Below, one piece after another: positions 18,265 to 33,246 of a DNA stretch of 64,000 nt. Every line of letters begins with the position of its first letter. The stretch's first letter is position 1. The position numbers and the translations under genes are program-made. This DNA is from a virus: IMG/VR virus record IMGVR_UViG_3300025102_000012, positions 1 through 64,000 of that record; one strand, given 5' to 3'. The notes beneath the pieces are model-generated. The model was given only the letters and a program-made list of their open reading frames with translations. It searched no databases and was not told the DNA's origin.

Positions 18265-21200
18265 ATGAAACTCAGCAGTATTGAGAAGGACAAGCAACCT
18301 TCACAAGAAATACTTCGTTTGTTTGAAAAGGTTAGAGTAGCCTATCTATCTGCTAGAAATGACCCTTCCGAGTATGGCGGAAGATGGAGAAGCGCCATAG
18401 AATTAATTAAAGATTCAGCAGAAGAAATGGACGCTACTAGTAATGAAATGAAAGATTACTTGGATTATGATTTATTAGAATCCGAAGAAGGAAATGACCC
18501 TACTTCTTTACAAGCAAAAAAAATATTTGAATCAATAAAAATGCTAAGGTATTCCTCGGATTTAGTTCAAGACCCTTTTGCTAAAAGATTCAAAGGAAAA
18601 GTTTTGGAGGCGCTTTTAGAAAATCCAGATGTTATGGTTAAGTTTGTTCACTATGCTCTTAGAGAAGATGATAATATATTGCCCGATGAACTTTATGCAA
18701 TAAAAGATATGTCTAGTGATAATATTACTCTTGGTCTTAAGGGTCTTGACCTAGAATCAGATGATGTGGCACTATATATTATTGAGCATTATGGAGACGG
18801 AAAAGACTCCAAATCAGTTGAAAAGAAAGTTAAGTCTGCTTTAGATATGTTAGAACTATTGATGTTATCTAGATATGAACAATCTGATTTAGATGAACTA
18901 ATAGAAATAGATGGGTTTGAAACAGAAAAGAAAGAAAAATCATTTAACATTAAAAAGATAATAAAATCTGAAGAAGAAAAATCATTGACAGATTTTATTG
19001 TTCCGAATAAACCAATGTATAGAATATTTGATATAGAAGATATTAACGAATTAAAAGGCTTTAGCGGTGATTGGTTTGTTCAAGAAAAATATGATGGAAT
19101 GAGAATACAGTTACAAAAAATAGATAATAATGTAAAAATATTTTCATACAATAAGAAAGATATTACAGAAAAGTGTAAAGAAATAGTTAAAGAATTAAAA
19201 GAAAAACAATTCGGTAGTTGTATTTTAGATGCCGAATTAATTCTATTTGATGAGGATGAACCATTACATAGGGCAGATACCATAGCCCATGTATTTAAAA
19301 ATAAATATCCTGATGCTAAACTCAAATGTCATGTCTTCGATATTATGCGACACGATGAACAAAACCTATTAGATGAAGAATTGAGTGATAGGATGACTAT
19401 AATGTTTAATAATTATTCTATGCATTCTTCGGATGCTTTGAATTTTCCTTCAAAGAAAGATACTAGACAAGCAGATAATTTAAAAGATGTAGAAGAGTAT
19501 TCTAAAGACATTATGGAGATGCCAACTTCGGAAGGAGTAGTAATAAAAGACTCTACATCTACTTATTATTTAGGAACAAGAAAGAATCCAAAATGGATTA
19601 AGTGGAAGAAGTTTGTAGATTTAGATGTAATAGTATTAGATAAATCTAAAACTAAAAGTAACTTATATTCTTATACTCTAGGAATATCTACTACCGAAGA
19701 AGAGGGTAAATTCATAGAAGATTATCAAGGTAAAAAATACATGAATGTAGGAAAGGCATTGAATACAAAAATTAATGTTGATATTGGTAGTATAATCAGG
19801 GTTAAGGTAGATGAAGTGAAAAGGGCAGGGGATAGATATACTCTATTCTCGGCAAAGGTAATTGAGATACCGGAAGTTACTGAACCGGATAAAGAAGTAA
19901 CTCTAGAACTATTGGCACAAGACACAAAAAAATCTCTTAATTATTCTATTGATGCTTTGAAGAAAGGTATTGTTTTGACTGACCATATTCATGGTGAAAC
20001 TACTGTTATTGCTAAATCTACTATGGATGGATTTACTGTTTATGGTTTTGAAAAGAATAACTTAATGTCTAAGAATGCTATTAAGGATTTAGATATGTGG
20101 AAACAACAAGTAGAAGAAATAATGAAAACTAAACAAAGTTTGCTTACCAATGCTATTTTTCAATTCTTAAAATTAAATGGAGCCAAATCACCAAAGTCTG
20201 TTCATAATTATTTAGTTGAAAAGCACCCTTCATTATATGAAGATGTATTAGAAAGTGAATTTTCTGAACTAAAGGATTGGTCGGAAAGAAGAGATGGTAT
20301 TGAATTTAGTGATGATAAGTTATTCTCAAATCCAAATAAAATAATGCTCAATGATTCTATTAAAAAAAGACTTAATGATTCTATCAAAAAATCACAAAAG
20401 TTAGAGATGTTATCTAGGTTCATGGATGAAAAAAAAACGCCAATGACTAATGTTCCAGTAACCATTGAAAGACAGAAAGAAATACCTATGGTATCTATGA
20501 TTGGTAGTGGTTCGGAAGACAAATGTTGTAATGAACTAAAGCAAAAAATAATTGGCTTTATTGAAAAACGCATTATGGGTAGTTTTGACGATGTGTTTAA
20601 TATGCTATTTGACATAACTGCTGACTCGGAAGAAGATAGGGACTATTTATTTACTGCCTACCTAGATGGAATTTCGCTTGAGCGTGAATCGGAAGAAGAC
20701 AGAATTACTGAATCATCAAAAGAAAAGATAAAGCACTATACTGCGGCTTATTATGGTGAGGCTTTATTAAATATGCCGTGTGATTCGTTGGTAAATAAAA
20801 TTAGAGAAAAACCATACTTTACTCAAATGACAACTTTTATTGAAGAATATGATAAGTGTAGCACAGGATTTGATTCGGATTTTTCCGATAAATACGCCAT
20901 GTTAAAGTCATATAAAACTCCCGAAGAATATAGAGAAGGAGAATTCAAAATCTATATGAGAAAAGATAACAACCTAAATATTGTAATGAAGTTAGGTGAT
21001 GAATCAATCAATTGGTTAGTAGATATACAAGACGAAGAGGAGTTGTTTGATATGTTTGGTAAAGCGGGCAAATACCCTGCTGAAGTTGCTAAGACTATTG
21101 ACAAAGAAAAGACAATTGATACAGGTAAAGTCGAATTAGGAGTTCAAAGACATGGCTATCATGAATATTTCTTAGAAGGAAATAAGTTTGAAACTAAACT

Positions 21201-21345
21201 ACATATTAGAGTTCTTCCCGTAAAAGATAAGAAAATGTGGTTAGCATGGACTGGATATGAACAAAAACCAGTAGACCAAGAAGAAGATAAAGGTATTTGG
21301 AATATATATGAAGATAAATTCAATTATATTGATATTCCCCGTTAA
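18265..21345 (+). CDS. lig: ATP-dependent DNA ligase with large N- and C-terminal extensions
   Basis: Motif I QEKYDGMR, III LDAELI, IIIa VFDIM, IV EGVVIKD, V WIKWK; OB-fold region follows. Confidence 0.88.
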   Translation: MKLSSIEKDKQPSQEILRLFEKVRVAYLSARNDPSEYGGRWRSAIELIKDSAEEMDATSNEMKDYLDYDLLESEEGNDPTSLQAKKIFESIKMLRYSSDLVQDPFAKRFKGKVLEALLENPDVMVKFVHYALREDDNILPDELYAIKDMSSDNITLGLKGLDLESDDVALYIIEHYGDGKDSKSVEKKVKSALDMLELLMLSRYEQSDLDELIEIDGFETEKKEKSFNIKKIIKSEEEKSLTDFIVPNKPMYRIFDIEDINELKGFSGDWFVQEKYDGMRIQLQKIDNNVKIFSYNKKDITEKCKEIVKELKEKQFGSCILDAELILFDEDEPLHRADTIAHVFKNKYPDAKLKCHVFDIMRHDEQNLLDEELSDRMTIMFNNYSMHSSDALNFPSKKDTRQADNLKDVEEYSKDIMEMPTSEGVVIKDSTSTYYLGTRKNPKWIKWKKFVDLDVIVLDKSKTKSNLYSYTLGISTTEEEGKFIEDYQGKKYMNVGKALNTKINVDIGSIIRVKVDEVKRAGDRYTLFSAKVIEIPEVTEPDKEVTLELLAQDTKKSLNYSIDALKKGIVLTDHIHGETTVIAKSTMDGFTVYGFEKNNLMSKNAIKDLDMWKQQVEEIMKTKQSLLTNAIFQFLKLNGAKSPKSVHNYLVEKHPSLYEDVLESEFSELKDWSERRDGIEFSDDKLFSNPNKIMLNDSIKKRLNDSIKKSQKLEMLSRFMDEKKTPMTNVPVTIERQKEIPMVSMIGSGSEDKCCNELKQKIIGFIEKRIMGSFDDVFNMLFDITADSEEDRDYLFTAYLDGISLERESEEDRITESSKEKIKHYTAAYYGEALLNMPCDSLVNKIREKPYFTQMTTFIEEYDKCSTGFDSDFSDKYAMLKSYKTPEEYREGEFKIYMRKDNNLNIVMKLGDESINWLVDIQDEEELFDMFGKAGKYPAEVAKTIDKEKTIDTGKVELGVQRHGYHEYFLEGNKFETKLHIRVLPVKDKKMWLAWTGYEQKPVDQEEDKGIWNIYEDKFNYIDIPR
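20347..20394 (+). repeat. 24-bp imperfect tandem duplication (LNDSIKK x2)
   Basis: ctcaatgattctattaaaaaaaga / cttaatgattctatcaaaaaatca. Confidence 0.8.
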
Positions 21346-22581: not shown

Positions 22582-23922
22582 ATGTCAGGATATATTAACA
22601 CAATAGCAGATTTAGAAGCACAAACATACGGATTTAGTCTCGGTGGAAGCAGTAACATGCTTTTGAAAACCGCAGGGGCAGTAAGTGGCATTCATGCTGG
22701 TCATGATGCATCTTCCCAAGCACAACCTACTACTGGTGTTGCAGGTAATCTTTACAATGTTCTATACGGACAAAAGGTTTGGTCAATGCTAAACAGGGAA
22801 GTAAATGCTCTATCAGTTATGGCTAAGAGGCCATATACTTCTAGTGGTTGGAGAGTTCTATCAAAAAGACCTGCTGGTGGAAGCGGTAACAAACATGCTT
22901 TCGTTCAAACTGGTGCTTTGGCTACAGCAACTAATCCCGGTGGCGACAACCCAAGATTAGATGTAATTGGTGGTGTAGAAGAAAACGCTTCACTATCTAC
23001 TGGTGGATTAATTGCTATTGCTCCGGAATATTCTGTATTGAATATGTCTCCGAAAATCGTTGCACATCAATTTGATTTCAGCGAATTGGCTATGGAAATG
23101 GCGGCAATTGACGATGGAATTGGTGACATTAGAGCGCAGATGAGAGAAGACATGGGTAAGCACCATGCTGAATCACAGAATCTAATGCTAGTTTCTCCTC
23201 TAGAAGCATATGTACAAGCAGATAAAACTAATGCAGCAGCAAACATTGAAAGAAACTATACTTCACTTTACAAAGTTATTTCTTCAAATGCAGAATTAGA
23301 CAAGATGGTTAGCGATAACTTCCCACAAGGTTCACTTACTGCTGATGGTCACGAAGCATACCACATTTACGGAACTAACCGTGATGATGCTTCTTTCCTA
23401 GATGCAACTATTGATTTTGGTGACGGATATGCAAGTGGAGATTCAAGACCATTTACACTAACAATTATGAACAGTCTATTGCGACAACTCCGTGAAAACG
23501 GTGGTTCTCCAAAGGTTATTCTAACAGGATATGATACTATCCAAACTCTTTCTGACTTGCTACAAAGCCAAGAAAGATTCATGGATAGAAAAGAGATTGT
23601 CCCAACTGTAAACGGTGTTAGAGGAACAAAAGGTGCAGAAGTTGGATTTAGAGTTGCTACTTACTACGATATACCACTAATTCCTGTAGTCTCTATGCAA
23701 AGCACTTCTGTTGACAGTGGAACAATTAGCGATATGCTATTCCTTGATACTGACCATATGTGGCTATCTGTTATGAAACCAACTCAATACTTTGAAGATG
23801 GTATTAGCAATGGAAACCCATTCGGTGTAAATCAACTTGGAAACAAGGCTCTTTACAGAACAATTGCAGAAGTTGGTTGTTCATACTTTAAGGGTCAAGG
23901 CAAAATTACTAACTTAAAGTGA
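22582..23922 (+). CDS. Major capsid protein
   Basis: 446 aa, directly after protease/scaffold; HK97-like C-terminal pattern (YYDIPLIP...MLFLD...GKITNL). Confidence 0.82.
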   Translation: MSGYINTIADLEAQTYGFSLGGSSNMLLKTAGAVSGIHAGHDASSQAQPTTGVAGNLYNVLYGQKVWSMLNREVNALSVMAKRPYTSSGWRVLSKRPAGGSGNKHAFVQTGALATATNPGGDNPRLDVIGGVEENASLSTGGLIAIAPEYSVLNMSPKIVAHQFDFSELAMEMAAIDDGIGDIRAQMREDMGKHHAESQNLMLVSPLEAYVQADKTNAAANIERNYTSLYKVISSNAELDKMVSDNFPQGSLTADGHEAYHIYGTNRDDASFLDATIDFGDGYASGDSRPFTLTIMNSLLRQLRENGGSPKVILTGYDTIQTLSDLLQSQERFMDRKEIVPTVNGVRGTKGAEVGFRVATYYDIPLIPVVSMQSTSVDSGTISDMLFLDTDHMWLSVMKPTQYFEDGISNGNPFGVNQLGNKALYRTIAEVGCSYFKGQGKITNLK

Positions 23923-24634: not shown

Positions 24635-24684
24635 GGAGAAACTGTTAAGAGTCTTGGCTCACAACAGTCGAATGAGGGAATGAC

Positions 24685-24993: not shown

Positions 24994-25392
24994 TTGGCGG
25001 CTTTGAATACAGACACTAGACTAGTAATGACTATACTTTTTGTTGGAGCATTAAGTGGAACAAATGTATTTGCTTATGCTCAATTTGGAACAGGATTCCC
25101 ATATGGCGCACTAGCACATTCGCTTCTATTTGGTTTAGGAACAATAGGTGCAATAATGGTAATGAAAGCATTATTTGATTTAGCACTTAATGATAAAATA
25201 GAGATGTGGCTACTAGATAGAAAGATTGCCGCATATTGGGAAAGAAAGGCTAGAGACGAACAACAAAGACAAAAAATGCGTGAAAGCGCAAGACAATACG
25301 GTTCTAATAATCCATTTTATAGTCCTCCTCAACAGACTATGCAAGAAGATGATAATAGCGTAGGGAATGAATTTTTAGCCACTTTACAATGA
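24994..25392 (+). CDS. Membrane protein (2 TM + charged helix)
   Basis: Two hydrophobic segments then KARDEQQRQKMRE; GAGGTG SD. Confidence 0.7.
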   Translation: MAALNTDTRLVMTILFVGALSGTNVFAYAQFGTGFPYGALAHSLLFGLGTIGAIMVMKALFDLALNDKIEMWLLDRKIAAYWERKARDEQQRQKMRESARQYGSNNPFYSPPQQTMQEDDNSVGNEFLATLQ

Positions 25393-25401
25393 GGTGGGTA
25401 G

Positions 25402-25620
25402 ATGGTTTTTGGAGACTTAATGGGATTTAGCGATTCCGATTATGCTTATAATCAAACAAGAGCGCATTCAGCAGATATTTTCTTTTTGAAAATGAGAGCA
25501 TGGTTTTGGGGTAGTTTTACTACTCTTTCTATGTTTCTTGTTGGTAATATAATGGGAGTATTTGATATAAATATAATGGGTTGGATTATAGACGGAGTTA
25601 AAACTTTATGGGGGCATTGA
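25402..25620 (+). CDS. Small membrane protein
   Basis: Hydrophobic segment WFWGSFTTLSMFLVGNIMGVF; GAGGTG SD. Confidence 0.65.
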   Translation: MVFGDLMGFSDSDYAYNQTRAHSADIFFLKMRAWFWGSFTTLSMFLVGNIMGVFDINIMGWIIDGVKTLWGH

Positions 25621-26289
25621 ATGTCTTTAATGACAGGCTTTGCTATATTAGTTGGTGAAGCAGTAATTGGTTTTTGGAAGAAAGTTCACGCAATTAATTT
25701 TGGAGTATATGGGGCGACAATGGTTGGTAAAACAACTTTAAGTCATCAACTTAGAACAAGAGGAGAAGTTCCTCAAATTAATGAAAGAACTGTTGGATTA
25801 CATAGGGCTTCAAGAAAAAATGTTAAAATAGATGGAGACTCACATACAATCAAGAGCGCTGATATAGGAGGAGAAGCGATTTATTGGAAAGAATGGGTCA
25901 AAGATATGCAAAAGCGTAGAGTAAAATATATTATTTTTATGATAGACCATAGACACTTAGACAACAATTCAAATTTAGACCATCAAGTAGCATGGAAATT
26001 TTTAGTAGATACTATTGTTTCTAATCTTTGGCCTACTGGTAGAAAGAAAAAAGATTCGGATTACCCTATGGCTGTAGGTATTTGGGCGAACAAATTCGAC
26101 ATATGGGGAGAAAAATATCCATTGGAGAAAGACCAAACTATAGACAAACATGAAATATTTGAACCTTTTAAGTATGGAATGAGACAACTTAACGATAAAG
26201 GAATACCCTGTTTCAAATATATAGTATCAGCAAAGTCAGACCCGGAAATGGTATATAGAGGCGTAATGACGATGATAAAAGACTACTGA
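25621..26289 (+). CDS. Arf/Sar1-like small GTPase
   Basis: G1 GATMVGKTT, G2 RTVG, G3 DIGGE, IIFMID, G4 NKFD, G5 SAK; N-terminal amphipathic helix. Confidence 0.85.
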   Translation: MSLMTGFAILVGEAVIGFWKKVHAINFGVYGATMVGKTTLSHQLRTRGEVPQINERTVGLHRASRKNVKIDGDSHTIKSADIGGEAIYWKEWVKDMQKRRVKYIIFMIDHRHLDNNSNLDHQVAWKFLVDTIVSNLWPTGRKKKDSDYPMAVGIWANKFDIWGEKYPLEKDQTIDKHEIFEPFKYGMRQLNDKGIPCFKYIVSAKSDPEMVYRGVMTMIKDY

Positions 26290-26299
26290 GGAATGAAAG

Positions 26300-26974
26300 A
26301 TGTATCAGCAACAAATAATAGGGCAAACAGCGCCGCAGAATTTTAACCCGCTACTTAACCCAATAGAGCAAGCAAGAACTAGTGGAAACATTATCGAGTA
26401 TAAGCCTTTAGCAATAAAGCCAAATAAACAAAGAAAAGAATATATCAAGGTATTAACCGCAGAACCTAAAAAGTTTTTATTCATTAAATATGGTAAAAAG
26501 TTCAACATGAAAGATAGGTGTGTAGTGTGTGGAATGCATCATATTTGGGAACAGGGTGATTATCTTAGACCACCAATTCCTCTTGATAAGGTAATCAAAG
26601 GACGGCCTTTGATGGGAACTTATTGTCCTAAACACTCTTCTATATTTACTCAACTAGAAATACTAGACCAACAAATTTTAGCAGAAAAACATGGTCTAGA
26701 ATATAAAGGATTTAAACCTAGAATGCCTAAAATACTTAAAAGTGGGCCAGTTTCTAGCCTATCAAAACAAGACATTGTGGCACTAACGGCAAACGGTTAT
26801 TTAATAAAGCCACCAACTTTAGGGGATAACAGGTCAGCGACTAACGAAGCCGTAGAGATAGTCGGGGAAATAAATATACTAACTGATAGATTAAATTATT
26901 TAATGATAAATAGAGAAGTTAAGGTTGATGACATTAAAAAAGAAGCATCTAAAAAAGAAGAAAATGAGGAATAA
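26300..26974 (+). CDS. Hypothetical protein with putative Zn-binding motif
   Basis: CVVCGMHH...YCPKH. Confidence 0.6.
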   Translation: MYQQQIIGQTAPQNFNPLLNPIEQARTSGNIIEYKPLAIKPNKQRKEYIKVLTAEPKKFLFIKYGKKFNMKDRCVVCGMHHIWEQGDYLRPPIPLDKVIKGRPLMGTYCPKHSSIFTQLEILDQQILAEKHGLEYKGFKPRMPKILKSGPVSSLSKQDIVALTANGYLIKPPTLGDNRSATNEAVEIVGEINILTDRLNYLMINREVKVDDIKKEASKKEENEE

Positions 26975-26976
26975 TA

Positions 26977-27639
26977 ATGGGACTATTAGGGACAAGTAAC
27001 GGAACAGTGCTGGCATCTGTACAACAACAAAGCGACCAACAATTTAAAAATGTAAATAATCTACTTTCTTTACAAGATAACCATGTTGAAGAATTTTTTC
27101 AATATCACGGAGAGCATTTTCTAACCGCTTTTGAAAAATTAATGGAAGATGTTATCGAAAGAGTAGTTTCTAAAATGTTGGCTAAGTTAGAATTTACAAC
27201 TAGTGGCGGAAACATTACTTTGAACAATGAATGTTTAAGAGAATATGAGAGAATAACGCAAGAGAATATAGATTTAGATATTCAATCAATACTTGGTGCG
27301 GCTTTAAATGCAGAAGTAATTAATCAAAGAAAGATGGCTAAACAACAATATTTAGAATCTCAAGGATTTAATAATGGTGGAGGACAAATGCCTATGCAAC
27401 AACCTTCAGCAGGAATGGCATTAGCAAATGTAACTGGGAATACTCAACAATTTAATCAAATGAATGGTGCCATGAATAATGGTAGTGGTTATCCTATTCC
27501 TCCTAGTGGAACAGACGGATATGGTAGGCCATATTGGATTGACCAACAAGGGCAAATGAGTTACGAACCCCCACAAAGCGGATTAGGTCTAGGCGGAGCA
27601 ATACAAAAAACTGCGGCTTGGGCTAAATGGTTAATGTGA
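26977..27639 (+). CDS. Hypothetical protein with Q/G/M/N-rich low-complexity region and amphipathic C-terminus
   Basis: GGGQMPMQQP...; ends AIQKTAAWAKWLM. Confidence 0.65.
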   Translation: MGLLGTSNGTVLASVQQQSDQQFKNVNNLLSLQDNHVEEFFQYHGEHFLTAFEKLMEDVIERVVSKMLAKLEFTTSGGNITLNNECLREYERITQENIDLDIQSILGAALNAEVINQRKMAKQQYLESQGFNNGGGQMPMQQPSAGMALANVTGNTQQFNQMNGAMNNGSGYPIPPSGTDGYGRPYWIDQQGQMSYEPPQSGLGLGGAIQKTAAWAKWLM

Positions 27640-27652
27640 GGAGGAATGTAGT

Positions 27653-28936
27653 TTGGCTGTTCAGTTTAGTTTTGGGGAATCAACAAGAGTTCTTCCCGGT
27701 GATGAAAATATAATGAAAGAAAAGTTTGTTACTTTTTTATCAGAAGATGCAGATATAGAAAACTTTAGAGATAACATAGATATTGCTTTGGCAACTGCTA
27801 GAAGAAACGAAACCGAAAAAGAACTACAAGAAGAACTATCTAAGGTTTTAAAAGAAACATTAGAAGATAACGAGTCATCTTTAAAAATTTATGAATCTGA
27901 TGGAGAAGCGTTTGCAGAATACTTGCGTGGAGATACTGATGAAAATAAAAAATTTGCTAATGAAAATTCTTTATATGAAATTTTTACTGATAACGATAAG
28001 TATTTAGAAATGATAGGCGCTAGTTATTTAAAATACGGAAGAGATTTAAATAAATTACCGGATTATGATATAGATTCTTTTCTTAAGAGAGAAGGATTAG
28101 ACAAAGTATATTCTGAACAATCATCAATTGGTATCACATTACTGTTAGGAGAATATACTTCTGCTATGCAGACCTTATTAGAAGCATTCAAAGATAATCC
28201 TACTGAAGTATTAAAACAGCCGGATTTTATAAATAACCTTACTTTTAGATTCAAAATAGAAAGATTTTCAGAAAACCCCGATTTGTATTTAGAGATACCT
28301 CCTCAACCTTTAGGCGCAGAAAGTATGGCTGAGCAATTAAGAACTGATTATGTGAATTATATTAGAAAAGAATTAGGTATTCGTAGTGGTGGTTTTATAC
28401 CCGAAGGACAATATTATACAAGCGGAGTAGAATCTAAAGTAGAATATAAACCGTATAGTAAAAGAACTATTAGAGTAAATGTTGCTAAGGAGGTAAAAGA
28501 ATCCTTGAATTTGGAAAAAGTAATGAAGAACATAGAAGCCAATCTTTATACTCCTAATAATTTTGAAATGACTATTATGACTAAAAACATTTTTAATGAA
28601 ATATTAAAATCTGATTATATCAAATTCTTAAAAGGAAAACTAGAAAGCATAAAAGAAATTAACTTACTTGAATTACAACTAAACATTTTAACTCCTAAAA
28701 TAAAAAAGAAAGACTGGTCACAAGGAAGTGAAGAAGAAAAACAAAAGGCACTGTTGAGTCCATTCGCAAACTTACAAGTAAATGTAGAACTTAGAGAAGC
28801 AAAGATTGGTAAGTTTGATTTTAGTTATTATTCTAAAGCAGGAGAAATTAAAAAAGATAGAATGAATGACCATCTTAATGAAGTAAGAACTAAGGTAAAA
28901 TATTTGAGAAATTTTGGGGTAGACGGAGGAATATAA
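27653..28936 (+). CDS. Hypothetical protein
   Basis: 427 aa, GAGGAGG SD, TTG start. Confidence 0.65.
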   Translation: MAVQFSFGESTRVLPGDENIMKEKFVTFLSEDADIENFRDNIDIALATARRNETEKELQEELSKVLKETLEDNESSLKIYESDGEAFAEYLRGDTDENKKFANENSLYEIFTDNDKYLEMIGASYLKYGRDLNKLPDYDIDSFLKREGLDKVYSEQSSIGITLLLGEYTSAMQTLLEAFKDNPTEVLKQPDFINNLTFRFKIERFSENPDLYLEIPPQPLGAESMAEQLRTDYVNYIRKELGIRSGGFIPEGQYYTSGVESKVEYKPYSKRTIRVNVAKEVKESLNLEKVMKNIEANLYTPNNFEMTIMTKNIFNEILKSDYIKFLKGKLESIKEINLLELQLNILTPKIKKKDWSQGSEEEKQKALLSPFANLQVNVELREAKIGKFDFSYYSKAGEIKKDRMNDHLNEVRTKVKYLRNFGVDGGI

Positions 28937-31017: not shown

Positions 31018-33246
31018 ATGGTAAATAGAGACATATTTTTAGGAAGCGGGGCAAGTTTAACTTTTGTTCCCGAAACAGACATAGCGATAACAACGAATGG
31101 AACAACGGGCGATTTAAGCACAATAACATTTTCATCAACATTCACAACAGATTTTTCACTCGTAAATAATCTATATGTTGGTTGTATAATAAAGAGATAC
31201 GCTAACGGAACTAACGCTTTCAAAAGTTCTCATAGAGTAACTGGAAATACTGCTACTACCGTTGATATTTCTCCTGCCGCTAAAAGCGTATTAAATAATG
31301 ATTATTTTGTTATTGAGGCTTATGGTGCGCCAACTCCCGGTGGTAAAGACGGCACTATCAAACACTTACTTGCTGATGAATGGTTAGGTATTGTAGAGAG
31401 TGCAACATTTCCTACAACTGAAGTCGAAACAAAACAAATGAATCTATCATTAGGAGGAAGTAGAAATAAAACATACCAATACAAAGGAATCGAAACTGCT
31501 AGTGGTGGTAATTTTGCATTTGTGGCTAATCATGCTTCTTTCTTGTATTACTTCTTTGGAAGATGCACAGAATTAGTATGCACTACAACTGCCGCTAGTG
31601 GAAGTATAACTGCAACTGCTGTTGATTCGGGCGATACTGGTAAATTCCATATTGATACAAATGGAGTATCTTTAACAAATGGTTCTACAAGTGCATTTGT
31701 AGAAACTGGGCCAATATTTACTAGAGCAATTTTAACAACCCCAACTCCACATTTTAATCCTGCAATTATTGGAGGAAGTGCTAGTGCAACATTAGCAACT
31801 CCTACAATATCAAACGCAGGAGCGCAAATAGAAGCAGATAATTCCATTATAACTGATTTTACTGGTGTCGGAGGATTAACAATTACTGGTGGAGAATTAG
31901 TCCTTACTCTAAGTGCCGAAACCTCTACTGTTACTTTCCCTGCTGAAAGTGGCTCAAACTATAATAGTGGATTTTTAACAATTAATTTGGCTAGTCCTAG
32001 TGGAGCAAATGGAGTTACTACCTTAGATATACTATTTGATGCTAGAAGCGCAACAGTAGCAACATCTACTGGTGAAGATTCAGTTACAGTATTAATTCAA
32101 AACAGCGCTACTGGTGCTGAAATAGCACAATCAGTATTAACAGCATTAGCAGGAAAAGATGTAACTGTTACAAGAAGTGGAGCAATTTTAACTATTACAA
32201 ATAAAACTGGAGGATATGTCGGTGCTGCTCATATTACTGAAACTACTACTACTGCTACAACTGAAACAATGGGAAGCGTAGCCGGAGGAATTGTTACGGC
32301 AGTTTCGGTTACAGATGCAGGTTCTTCTGTTAGCGGAAGTGGAAATCTAACTTTAACAGCCAATACTACTGGCGGAACAAATATTGATGCAGTAATAGCA
32401 TTAGCCGCACAAAGCGCAAATCCTCTTACTGGTTTAACTGTTCTAACAGAACCAACAGAATCATCGGGATTAATACAGAATCACATAGAATATACCTTTG
32501 GTGAACAAGATGGTGATTTACTTCCTTCATTCGCAATAGAACAAGTATTCAGTAAACTGGCGACAACTACCAATACATACAGAACAGAAACAGATAATGC
32601 TGATGAGAGCCTAAACTTTGTTAAGATTGCTAGAGGTTGTAGAGTTAATACTCTAACAATGACCGCTAATGCAAACGAAGAAGTTAAAATGACTATGGAT
32701 TATAATACTAGAAATGTTCATTCATTAGAAAGAACAGAACCTTACGAAGCAAGAAGGGGCATAGAAACCGAAACTGATTTCATTAACTATACTAGTTCTA
32801 GTATTGCCCCAACCTTCCTAGAACCGTTTTTCTTTTCTGATGGAACCTTCAGTATTTTTGGAGAGAGTTTCCTAAAGATAACAACAATGAGTTTAACCAT
32901 GAATAACAATCTTCAAGATAAAAGATTCTTAGGTGTAGGAAGTAAATCCATTCAAGAGGCTATTCCTGCTGAAAGAACTTATGAATTACAATTTAATGGC
33001 CATGTTACTAATGATAAACTATACACTGAATTACTAAAAACTCAAGAAAACACTACTCAAGATATAGAATTAATATTTGCTAAAGCAAATGGAGAATCTA
33101 TCACTCTCAAATTTAAGGATTATTTTGTTTCGGCAAATAATTTCCCAATACCCGATGATAAGGGAGCAATTGAAGTAGAAACTACTGTTATGCCTAGAAA
33201 TCTAGCAGAATGTAAAGTTAAAACTCATTGGATTCTACAGGGGTGA
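31018..33246 (+). CDS. Major tail (tube) protein with large T/G/A-rich insertion
   Basis: ARGCRVNTLTMTA...PFFFSDG...SLTMNNNL motifs of tube proteins; upstream of chaperones and TMP. Confidence 0.7.
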   Translation: MVNRDIFLGSGASLTFVPETDIAITTNGTTGDLSTITFSSTFTTDFSLVNNLYVGCIIKRYANGTNAFKSSHRVTGNTATTVDISPAAKSVLNNDYFVIEAYGAPTPGGKDGTIKHLLADEWLGIVESATFPTTEVETKQMNLSLGGSRNKTYQYKGIETASGGNFAFVANHASFLYYFFGRCTELVCTTTAASGSITATAVDSGDTGKFHIDTNGVSLTNGSTSAFVETGPIFTRAILTTPTPHFNPAIIGGSASATLATPTISNAGAQIEADNSIITDFTGVGGLTITGGELVLTLSAETSTVTFPAESGSNYNSGFLTINLASPSGANGVTTLDILFDARSATVATSTGEDSVTVLIQNSATGAEIAQSVLTALAGKDVTVTRSGAILTITNKTGGYVGAAHITETTTTATTETMGSVAGGIVTAVSVTDAGSSVSGSGNLTLTANTTGGTNIDAVIALAAQSANPLTGLTVLTEPTESSGLIQNHIEYTFGEQDGDLLPSFAIEQVFSKLATTTNTYRTETDNADESLNFVKIARGCRVNTLTMTANANEEVKMTMDYNTRNVHSLERTEPYEARRGIETETDFINYTSSSIAPTFLEPFFFSDGTFSIFGESFLKITTMSLTMNNNLQDKRFLGVGSKSIQEAIPAERTYELQFNGHVTNDKLYTELLKTQENTTQDIELIFAKANGESITLKFKDYFVSANNFPIPDDKGAIEVETTVMPRNLAECKVKTHWILQG

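Follow-up and report, generated by a model that had tools for sequence, protein, structure and literature searches.

A conserved five-gene cassette around a predicted Arf-like small GTPase in tailed viruses of marine archaea

Among archaea, the nearest functional analogue of the locus reported here appears to be the ArvA-ArvB-ArvC operon of Haloferax volcanii, which encodes a small GTPase with a hydrophobic N-terminal helix together with two small partners, one of them Zn-binding, and which acts on the cell membrane (PMC10927574). Other small GTPases of viruses and mobile DNA are of a different kind: the Rab, Ras and Ran GTPases of giant eukaryotic viruses (e.g. the mimivirus Rab, PDB 5XC5) are recent host captures, recognisable by sequence, and the same holds for the Arf-type GTPases which occur in a mobile-like region of an Asgard genome, and which are recent captures of host Arf proteins (PMC11529989). 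Here we describe a cassette of five genes, g1 to g5, located at positions 24994-27639 of the first 64 kb of a complete, linear, 92.8-kb virus record (IMG/VR record IMGVR_UViG_3300025102_000012; this whole stretch of 64,000 nucleotides is referred to as the window), whose third gene encodes a predicted Arf-like small GTPase. In contrast to the giant-virus and Asgard proteins, the g3 family is highly diverged, is found in tailed archaeal viruses only and is embedded in a fixed five-gene cassette. We consider it very likely both that g3 is an Arf-like GTPase and that the cassette is a module.

The GC content of the virus is about 33%, and the close relatives of its GTPase are hundreds of marine metagenome proteins, one of them named from 'Poseidoniales virus YSH_150918'. 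These relationships identify it, on sequence grounds, as a magrovirus, a tailed virus of Poseidoniales (marine group II archaea); the haloarchaeal framing adopted in a preliminary description of this DNA therefore does not apply. Four branches of magroviruses were compared: branch A, to which the window belongs, with its close relatives (80 loci examined); branch B, with 80 IMG/VR loci, a GTPase 35-40% identical and a GC content of 0.47; branch C, with four loci (GC 0.45-0.53); and branch D, made up of metagenome contigs (GC about 0.44).

The likeness to the Haloferax operon (PMC10927574) lies in the arrangement as an archaeal small-GTPase operon, in the hydrophobic N-terminal helix and in the presence of a partner with a Zn motif, but the viral cassette additionally has transmembrane (TM) proteins. 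The ArvB and ArvC families (DUF2073 and DUF2072, respectively) gave no Pfam match with g1, g2, g4 or g5, and neither was found among 22 members of the g4 family at E <= 1. A link to the haloarchaeal vesicle GTPase system, which the preliminary description mentions, is not sustained by any similarity to the ArvB or ArvC partners.

The GTPase and its relation to the Arf family

The g3 gene (25621-26289, + strand) encodes a small GTPase of 222 amino acids (aa) that is Arf-like and begins with a hydrophobic anchor helix. As originally described, all motifs from G1 to G5 are intact and in order: G1 GATMVGKT at residues 31-38 (nucleotides, nt, 25711-25734), switch-I RTVG at 56-59 (nt 25786-25797), G3 DIGGE at 81-85 (nt 25861-25875), followed by W92 (within nt 25882-25896), IFMIDHRH, with its IDHRH at nt 25942-25956, G4 NKFD at 157-160 (nt 26089-26100) and G5 SAK at 203-205 (nt 26227-26235). 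G1, D[ILV]GGE, the Trp 11 residues after the G3 Asp (D+11), NKxD and SAK are all kept in each of 66 unique close relatives, far above chance; G1 and NKxD are also invariant in the 68 divergent sequences of branch B. The Trp at D+11, found in 66/66 branch-A and 64/68 branch-B sequences, has a spacing typical of Arf, Sar1 and G-alpha which, to our knowledge, is not a feature of Ras, Rab or Rho. In an alignment of 17 family members D81, G84 and D109 are invariant, and G31, G36, K37, T39, W92 and K158 nearly so.

Similarity searches place the family at some distance from described GTPases. The Pfam Arf family (PF00025) was not matched by the window GTPase at E <= 0.1, nor by anything in the genome at E <= 0.01, and a phmmer search of the PDB sequences with the single GTPase sequence returned chance matches only. 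A profile built on the 17 family members, on the other hand, matched Rab33B, Ras and Arl3 among the PDB sequences at 2e-8 to 2e-6, and two distant relatives, P0167 and P0168, exceed the Pfam Arf cut-off of 22.3 bits, with 57.2 and 27.2 bits, respectively; both are singletons on 1.6-kb contigs, for which no relatives were found in IMG/VR or in a word-indexed database. The AlphaFold 2 (AF2) model of g3 (predicted local distance difference test, pLDDT, 86) has a small-GTPase fold, and the solved structures closest to it are members of the Arf family. By modelled fold and by signature, g3 is therefore classified as an Arf-like small GTPase, of the Arf/Sar/SR-beta structural type (SR-beta being the beta subunit of the signal recognition particle receptor), whose sequence is too diverged to be filed under Pfam Arf by score. 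The Arf/Sar likeness claimed at the outset is upheld by the fold, by the DxGGx6W signature and by the Pfam Arf matches of the two distant relatives.

Identity to members of the Arf family (Arf1, Arf6, Arl1, Arl3, Arl6 and Sar1, as well as the Asgard ArfR, PDB 8OUM and 8OUK) is about 15-21%, and several differences stand out. Unlike Arf, g3 has no Gly2 myristoylation site, residue 2 being a Ser, its helix is hydrophobic and not amphipathic, and in branch A a Glu replaces the catalytic Gln. Nor does Arf share the IDHRH motif or the loop of some 20 residues that precedes G4, both typical of the g3 family, and the cassette includes no ArfGAP- or Sec7-type partner.

The catalytic residue following DxGG is Gln in Arf, and His in Sar1 and SR-beta. 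In the window this position is occupied by Glu85, as it is by Glu in all 66 branch-A sequences; elsewhere it varies, being Q in 42, E in 13, D in 6 and H in 1 of the branch-B sequences, and His, as in Sar1, in branch C. The Glu pointed out in the preliminary description is hence a constant trait of branch A, but not of the family as a whole. Since the residue is always polar, the sequences fit a working hydrolase.

The N-terminal helix (residues 2-22; the anchor region, residues 1-22, corresponds to nt 25621-25686) is uniformly hydrophobic, with a mean Eisenberg hydrophobicity <H> of 0.70 and a hydrophobic moment muH of 0.18, and is immediately followed by Lys-Lys. It had been taken for an amphipathic helix; these values speak instead for a hydrophobic anchor of the SR-beta kind, and we predict that it holds the protein in the membrane, as in SR-beta, and does not lie in the membrane plane as the helix of Arf and Sar1 does. 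The corresponding helix of the branch-B GTPase is less hydrophobic (<H> 0.45). The resemblance to SR-beta consists in a hydrophobic N-terminal anchor directly followed by an Arf-like G domain, and Pfam SRPRB matches were obtained for 5 of the 17 family members, the best at 8e-5 and all of them sub-threshold. However, the window GTPase scores 13.7 bits against the PF09439 cut-off of 25, no SR-alpha/SRX-like partner was recognised, and SR-beta itself has DxPGH and no Trp at D+11.

This architecture, like the weak SRPRB matches, would suit a module that takes over the host membrane for purposes other than release, be it mimicry or block of an ArvA-like vesicle pathway, superinfection exclusion, or SR-beta-like targeting of viral membrane proteins; in haloarchaea, a small-GTPase operon including a Zn-ribbon protein does drive vesicle formation (PMC10927574). 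On the other hand, no cassette protein matches ArvB (DUF2073) or ArvC (DUF2072), no longin/SRX-like partner was found, and a location among late structural genes, such as that seen in the window genome, is unusual for takeover or exclusion genes. In tailed phages these are typically early genes, and we infer that the same applies to archaeal viruses. Taken together, a takeover of this sort is distinctly unlikely.

Constraint on the cassette was estimated as the ratio of non-synonymous to synonymous substitution rates (dN/dS, Nei-Gojobori) among close relatives. The GTPase has the lowest value in the neighbourhood, 0.067, followed by the other cassette genes with 0.10-0.16 (g1 0.10, g2 0.13, g5 0.13), by the capsid protein with 0.20 and by three small upstream genes with 0.30-0.42; synonymous sites being near saturation, only the ranking of these figures is safe, and it is reproduced by codon-position differences in matched pairs. 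The GTPase is under very strong purifying selection. A low dS of g2 turned out to be an artefact of pair filtering, as its third-position divergence in matched pairs equals that of its neighbours.

Composition and conservation of the cassette

The cassette is made up of five open reading frames (ORFs), all on the + strand and separated by gaps of 0-10 nt; tight packing of five genes had already been reported, and the ORFs lie at exactly the coordinates then given. A GAGG-type ribosome-binding site precedes four of the five. None of the four genes accompanying the GTPase could be assigned to a Pfam, PHROG or NCBIfam family.

The first two genes encode membrane proteins, in agreement with the preliminary description: according to hydropathy, g1 has two hydrophobic segments and g2 one. 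The 132-aa product of g1 (24994-25392, + strand) features hydrophobic helices at residues 9-29 (nt 25018-25080) and 38-65 (nt 25105-25188), followed by a charged helical stretch and then by an acidic tail; its start codon is a TTG, about 5 nt 3' of a GAGGTG. The 72-aa product of g2 (25402-25620, + strand) has its hydrophobic segment at about residues 37-63 (nt 25510-25590). Among 80 close relatives, g1 is present in 78 and g2 in 79. The TGA stop of g2 directly abuts the ATG of the GTPase gene, an arrangement that suggests translational coupling of the two. The cassette can accommodate additional small genes between g2 and the GTPase gene, as seen in 12 of 79 close relatives.

Downstream of the GTPase, g4 (26300-26974, + strand) encodes a soluble protein of 224 aa with a Cys/His knuckle pair, C74-x2-C77 ... 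C109-P-K-H112 (nt 26519-26635). C74, C77, C109 and H112 are invariant in 63/63 branch-A relatives, and a 'GTYCPxH' motif, together with C74, is kept in the alignment across branches A, B and C. The pair is a probable Zn/metal site, and the Zn-motif protein of the preliminary description is thereby confirmed at the level of the motif. Co-folding of the GTPase, with GTP and Mg, and g4 gave a score of 0.00, which speaks neither for nor against binding. In a protein atlas the best value for g4, 0.86, was below the threshold for a lead, and nothing usable was returned for g5.

The last gene, g5 (26977-27639, + strand), encodes a 220-aa Q/G/N/P-rich protein. An N-terminal helical part is followed by a disordered region of low complexity, residues 125-200 (nt 27349-27576), 53% of which is Q/G/N/P, and by a Gly/Trp-rich C-terminal tail, GLGLGGAIQKTAAWAKWLM, at nt 27580-27636. 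The protein had been described as Q/G-rich with an amphipathic C-terminus; the composition is as stated, but the tail is only weakly amphipathic in branch A (muH about 0.2-0.27), with a higher value, 0.42, in branch B.

The five genes are co-linear and compact in all of the 63 close loci that contain all five. Branches B, C and D keep this order: two TM proteins, the second of them small, precede the GTPase, which is followed by a homologue of g4 and by one of g5, likewise rich in Q/G/N/P. When branches A and B are compared by hhalign, the GTPase is matched at 99.9%, g4 at 94.6% (E 7e-8) and g5 at 62.6% (E 7e-5). Matches of hidden Markov models (HMMs) place g4 homologues in branches C and D as well; jackhmmer connects g5 across branches A, B and C, and the HMM of branch-B g5 matches branch D at 4.5e-13, cross-branch scores of g5 being somewhat inflated by its low complexity. 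The two upstream TM proteins are connected across branches B, C and D by iterative searches, and the small one ends right at the start of the GTPase in branches B and C. Two family members, P0179 and P0132, were not found in IMG/VR; the latter was recovered from metagenome contigs.

Some branches carry further genes. An additional protein with two TM segments follows g5 in branches B and D. In branch D, the GTPase gene is directly preceded by an additional gene (L167:7229-7999, L176:7217-7999, L172:6435-7181), whose product of about 250 aa has a strongly acidic C-terminus; jackhmmer found no relatives of this protein in the other branches.

The neighbours of the cassette differ from branch to branch. 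Upstream of it is the capsid protein in branch A, a giant ORF in branch B and a thermosome-type chaperonin in branch C; downstream, branch B has a protein with helix-turn-helix and Cys motifs. The cassette thus stands as an independent unit that is not bound to the junction of capsid and neck genes, and its sequence context indicates that it moves as a unit between genomic settings in four divergent magrovirus lineages. Co-conservation of the genes had been chosen beforehand as the point on which the module idea could fail: GTPase, g4 and g5 proved homologous and co-linear in the four branches, and the TM proteins are always upstream. As to the neighbours themselves, the branch-B giant ORF is 2,282-2,356 aa long (L085:12-7079, L111:261-7109) and has no Pfam or PHROG match. 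The branch-C chaperonin is full-length (Cpn60_TCP1, E 1e-133 to 1e-140; L162:5250-6782, L165:4820-6478), and at most one short ORF separates it from the cassette.

The conserved order bears on the idea that virions contain the GTPase, as a structural component or as a packaged protein injected, for instance, into the next host, and that the TM neighbours are unrelated small genes. The position of the cassette within a structural module in branch A would suit such a protein. A hydrophobic N-terminal anchor and TM neighbours are, however, hard to reconcile with a soluble packaged protein; the order TM / GTPase / g4 / g5 is kept across four branches, so that the TM neighbours are not incidental; and in the other branches no recognisable capsid genes were seen beside the cassette within 8-kb flanks. 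We regard a packaged GTPase as very improbable.

The changing neighbourhood can also be examined for signs of a membrane-bound platform for assembly or packaging, on which the anchored GTPase and its partners would recruit or arrange procapsids, chaperonin or tail components without being involved in release. Such a platform would explain why the cassette lies inside the head-to-tail structural array in branch A and directly after the thermosome-type chaperonin in branch C, and g5 weakly matches a PHROG annotated 'virion structural protein', although this match (E 0.0046) is below any safe threshold. Yet the composition of the cassette remains constant while its structural neighbours change, and we know of no tailed virus that needs a membrane for its assembly. 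A platform of this kind seems unlikely, although it ranks second, after a role in release.

Genomic setting and a possible role in virion release

The genome encodes a large terminase, a portal, an ATP-dependent ligase, a prohead protease, an HK97-type capsid protein and a tail tube protein. In branch A the cassette is found within a head-to-tail structural array, after the protease, the capsid protein (22582-23922, recognised by a family match) and three small proteins; the first recognisable tail gene downstream is that of the tail tube protein (31018-33246). Of the placement 'between capsid and neck genes' given in the preliminary description, the upstream half is accurate, capsid protein and prohead protease being there, but the downstream 'neck' genes belong to no assignable family, and a capsid-to-neck position holds for branch A and not for the other branches. 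Scans for bacterial-type promoters and terminators gave counts not above those of shuffled sequence, and no separate promoter of the cassette is visible in the 50-nt gap at 24635-24684.

Two further genes of the window deserve mention. One, at 18265-21345, lies inside the head module, between the portal region and the prohead protease, and encodes a protein of 1,026 aa that includes a domain of ATP-dependent DNA ligases (E 9e-30). Directly 3' of the cassette, a gene at 27653-28936 encodes a protein of 427 aa, whose homologues in close relatives range from 377 to 770 aa; the stretch that it fills, from g5 to the next gene that is conserved, measures 1.1-2.5 kb among close relatives, and phmmer, queried with the window copy, recovered it from no more than 6 of the 80 loci. 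Its product may be evolving fast, perhaps as a surface protein or as one that interacts with the host.

With several small TM proteins grouped in the late operon of a tailed virus, the locus is reminiscent of the holin/antiholin/spanin cassettes of phages. In contrast to these, none of g1-g5 matches a holin or endolysin family in Pfam, PHROG or NCBIfam, and the hosts, marine group II archaea, lack peptidoglycan; we know of no lysis cassette that contains a GTPase. Small TM proteins alone do not define membership in a lysis cassette.

Our tentative proposal is that the cassette is a self-contained, virus-specific membrane module around an Arf-like switch, which would provide GTP-controlled remodelling or rupture of the host membrane for virion release; we see this as quite possible, though at somewhat less than even chances. 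With its N-terminal anchor inserted next to g1 and g2, the GTPase would be attached to the host membrane from the cytoplasmic side, in the topology of SR-beta, and would cycle between GTP and GDP states; g4 and g5 would serve as its regulator and effector, with the g5 tail providing a second contact with the membrane. Late in infection, remodelling or rupture of the membrane under GTP control would then release the virions. A role in release is ranked first because the cassette lies in a late, one-strand structural array, because the genome shows no further gene recognisable as acting on membranes and because the hosts are devoid of peptidoglycan. As there would be no peptidoglycan for an endolysin to attack and no other recognisable gene to act on the membrane, membrane remodelling or rupture is the most likely job of these proteins. 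A more specific version would see in the cassette a minimal viral machine of the Sar1/Arf type for membrane remodelling, composed of an anchored switch, its TM partners, a regulator with a Zn knuckle and a disordered effector whose tail binds the membrane, and would have this machine both time and execute release; taken as a whole, this version is improbable.

The argument for egress or membrane remodelling is drawn from the anatomy and context of the cassette, and a number of observations weigh against it. Late expression is deduced solely from gene position, and the branch-C cassette adjoins a chaperonin, a setting which fits assembly as well as egress. The AF2 model of g4 (pLDDT 48, predicted template modelling score 0.26, from a 22-row alignment) is too poor to show a fold like that of a GTPase-activating protein or an effector. 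The window GTPase is below every Pfam small-GTPase threshold, MMR_HSR1, Roc, SRPRB and Ras all being sub-threshold. The match between g1 and its positional counterpart, a TM protein, in branches B, C and D is marginal (hhalign 34%, E 4e-4, 70 columns), and homology between g2 and its counterparts in other branches is unsupported (hhalign 16%); g1 and g2 are therefore treated as positional and topological equivalents of these proteins, and not as their homologues. Lastly, in 12 of 79 close relatives g2 and the GTPase gene are set apart by about 250-940 nt of additional DNA, and the coupling of the two genes is therefore not obligatory.

Distribution and significance

Relatives of the GTPase are few. 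Among 1.8 billion representative proteins, only 63 were found at E <= 0.001, with no mass of cellular GTPases among them, and a profile search of a set of 5.8 billion proteins revealed no cellular relatives among the 120 matches listed. In tblastn searches, the branch-A and branch-B GTPases matched none of 50,697 deposited phage records. A single match was obtained in 185,579 species genomes, a GTPase 93% identical on a 12.2-kb contig (L166, NZMJ01000024.1) filed under a metagenome-assembled genome of Maricaulis, an alphaproteobacterium; this contig is almost certainly a mis-binned magrovirus fragment. Judging from these searches, the family is virus-specific and confined to tailed archaeal viruses. 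The top 50 matches in a viral fold library are exclusively Rab, Ras and Ran proteins of giant viruses, a result in line with the initial remark that such GTPases are not a standard part of tailed-virus morphogenesis modules; in tailed viruses of prokaryotes, small GTPases are unusual.

The main texts consulted on magroviruses and archaeal tailed viruses mention no GTPase, and no lysis genes are named there for the magroviruses. For the Adrikavirales, by contrast, a pair of holin and amidase is reported (PMC11706807). Homologues of the GTPase are labelled 'hypothetical protein' in the NCBI record, and some bear the automatic JGI label 'GTPase SAR1 family protein'. As far as our searches reach, no cassette with a small GTPase has been described from a tailed virus of prokaryotes, and the present one would be new, within the same reach, even if its role were in assembly or in host takeover.

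The cassette extends the known range of Arf-like GTPases beyond eukaryotes and Asgard archaea, and offers a compact, five-protein system for studying the action of a small GTPase on an archaeal membrane. It is also a concrete, cloneable candidate for the step by which tailed viruses leave archaeal cells that have no peptidoglycan wall, in hosts, the marine group II archaea, which are abundant. Should it prove to be a release machine, it would represent the first mechanism known by which tailed viruses of marine archaea are released, and also the first in any prokaryotic virus to be driven by a GTPase.

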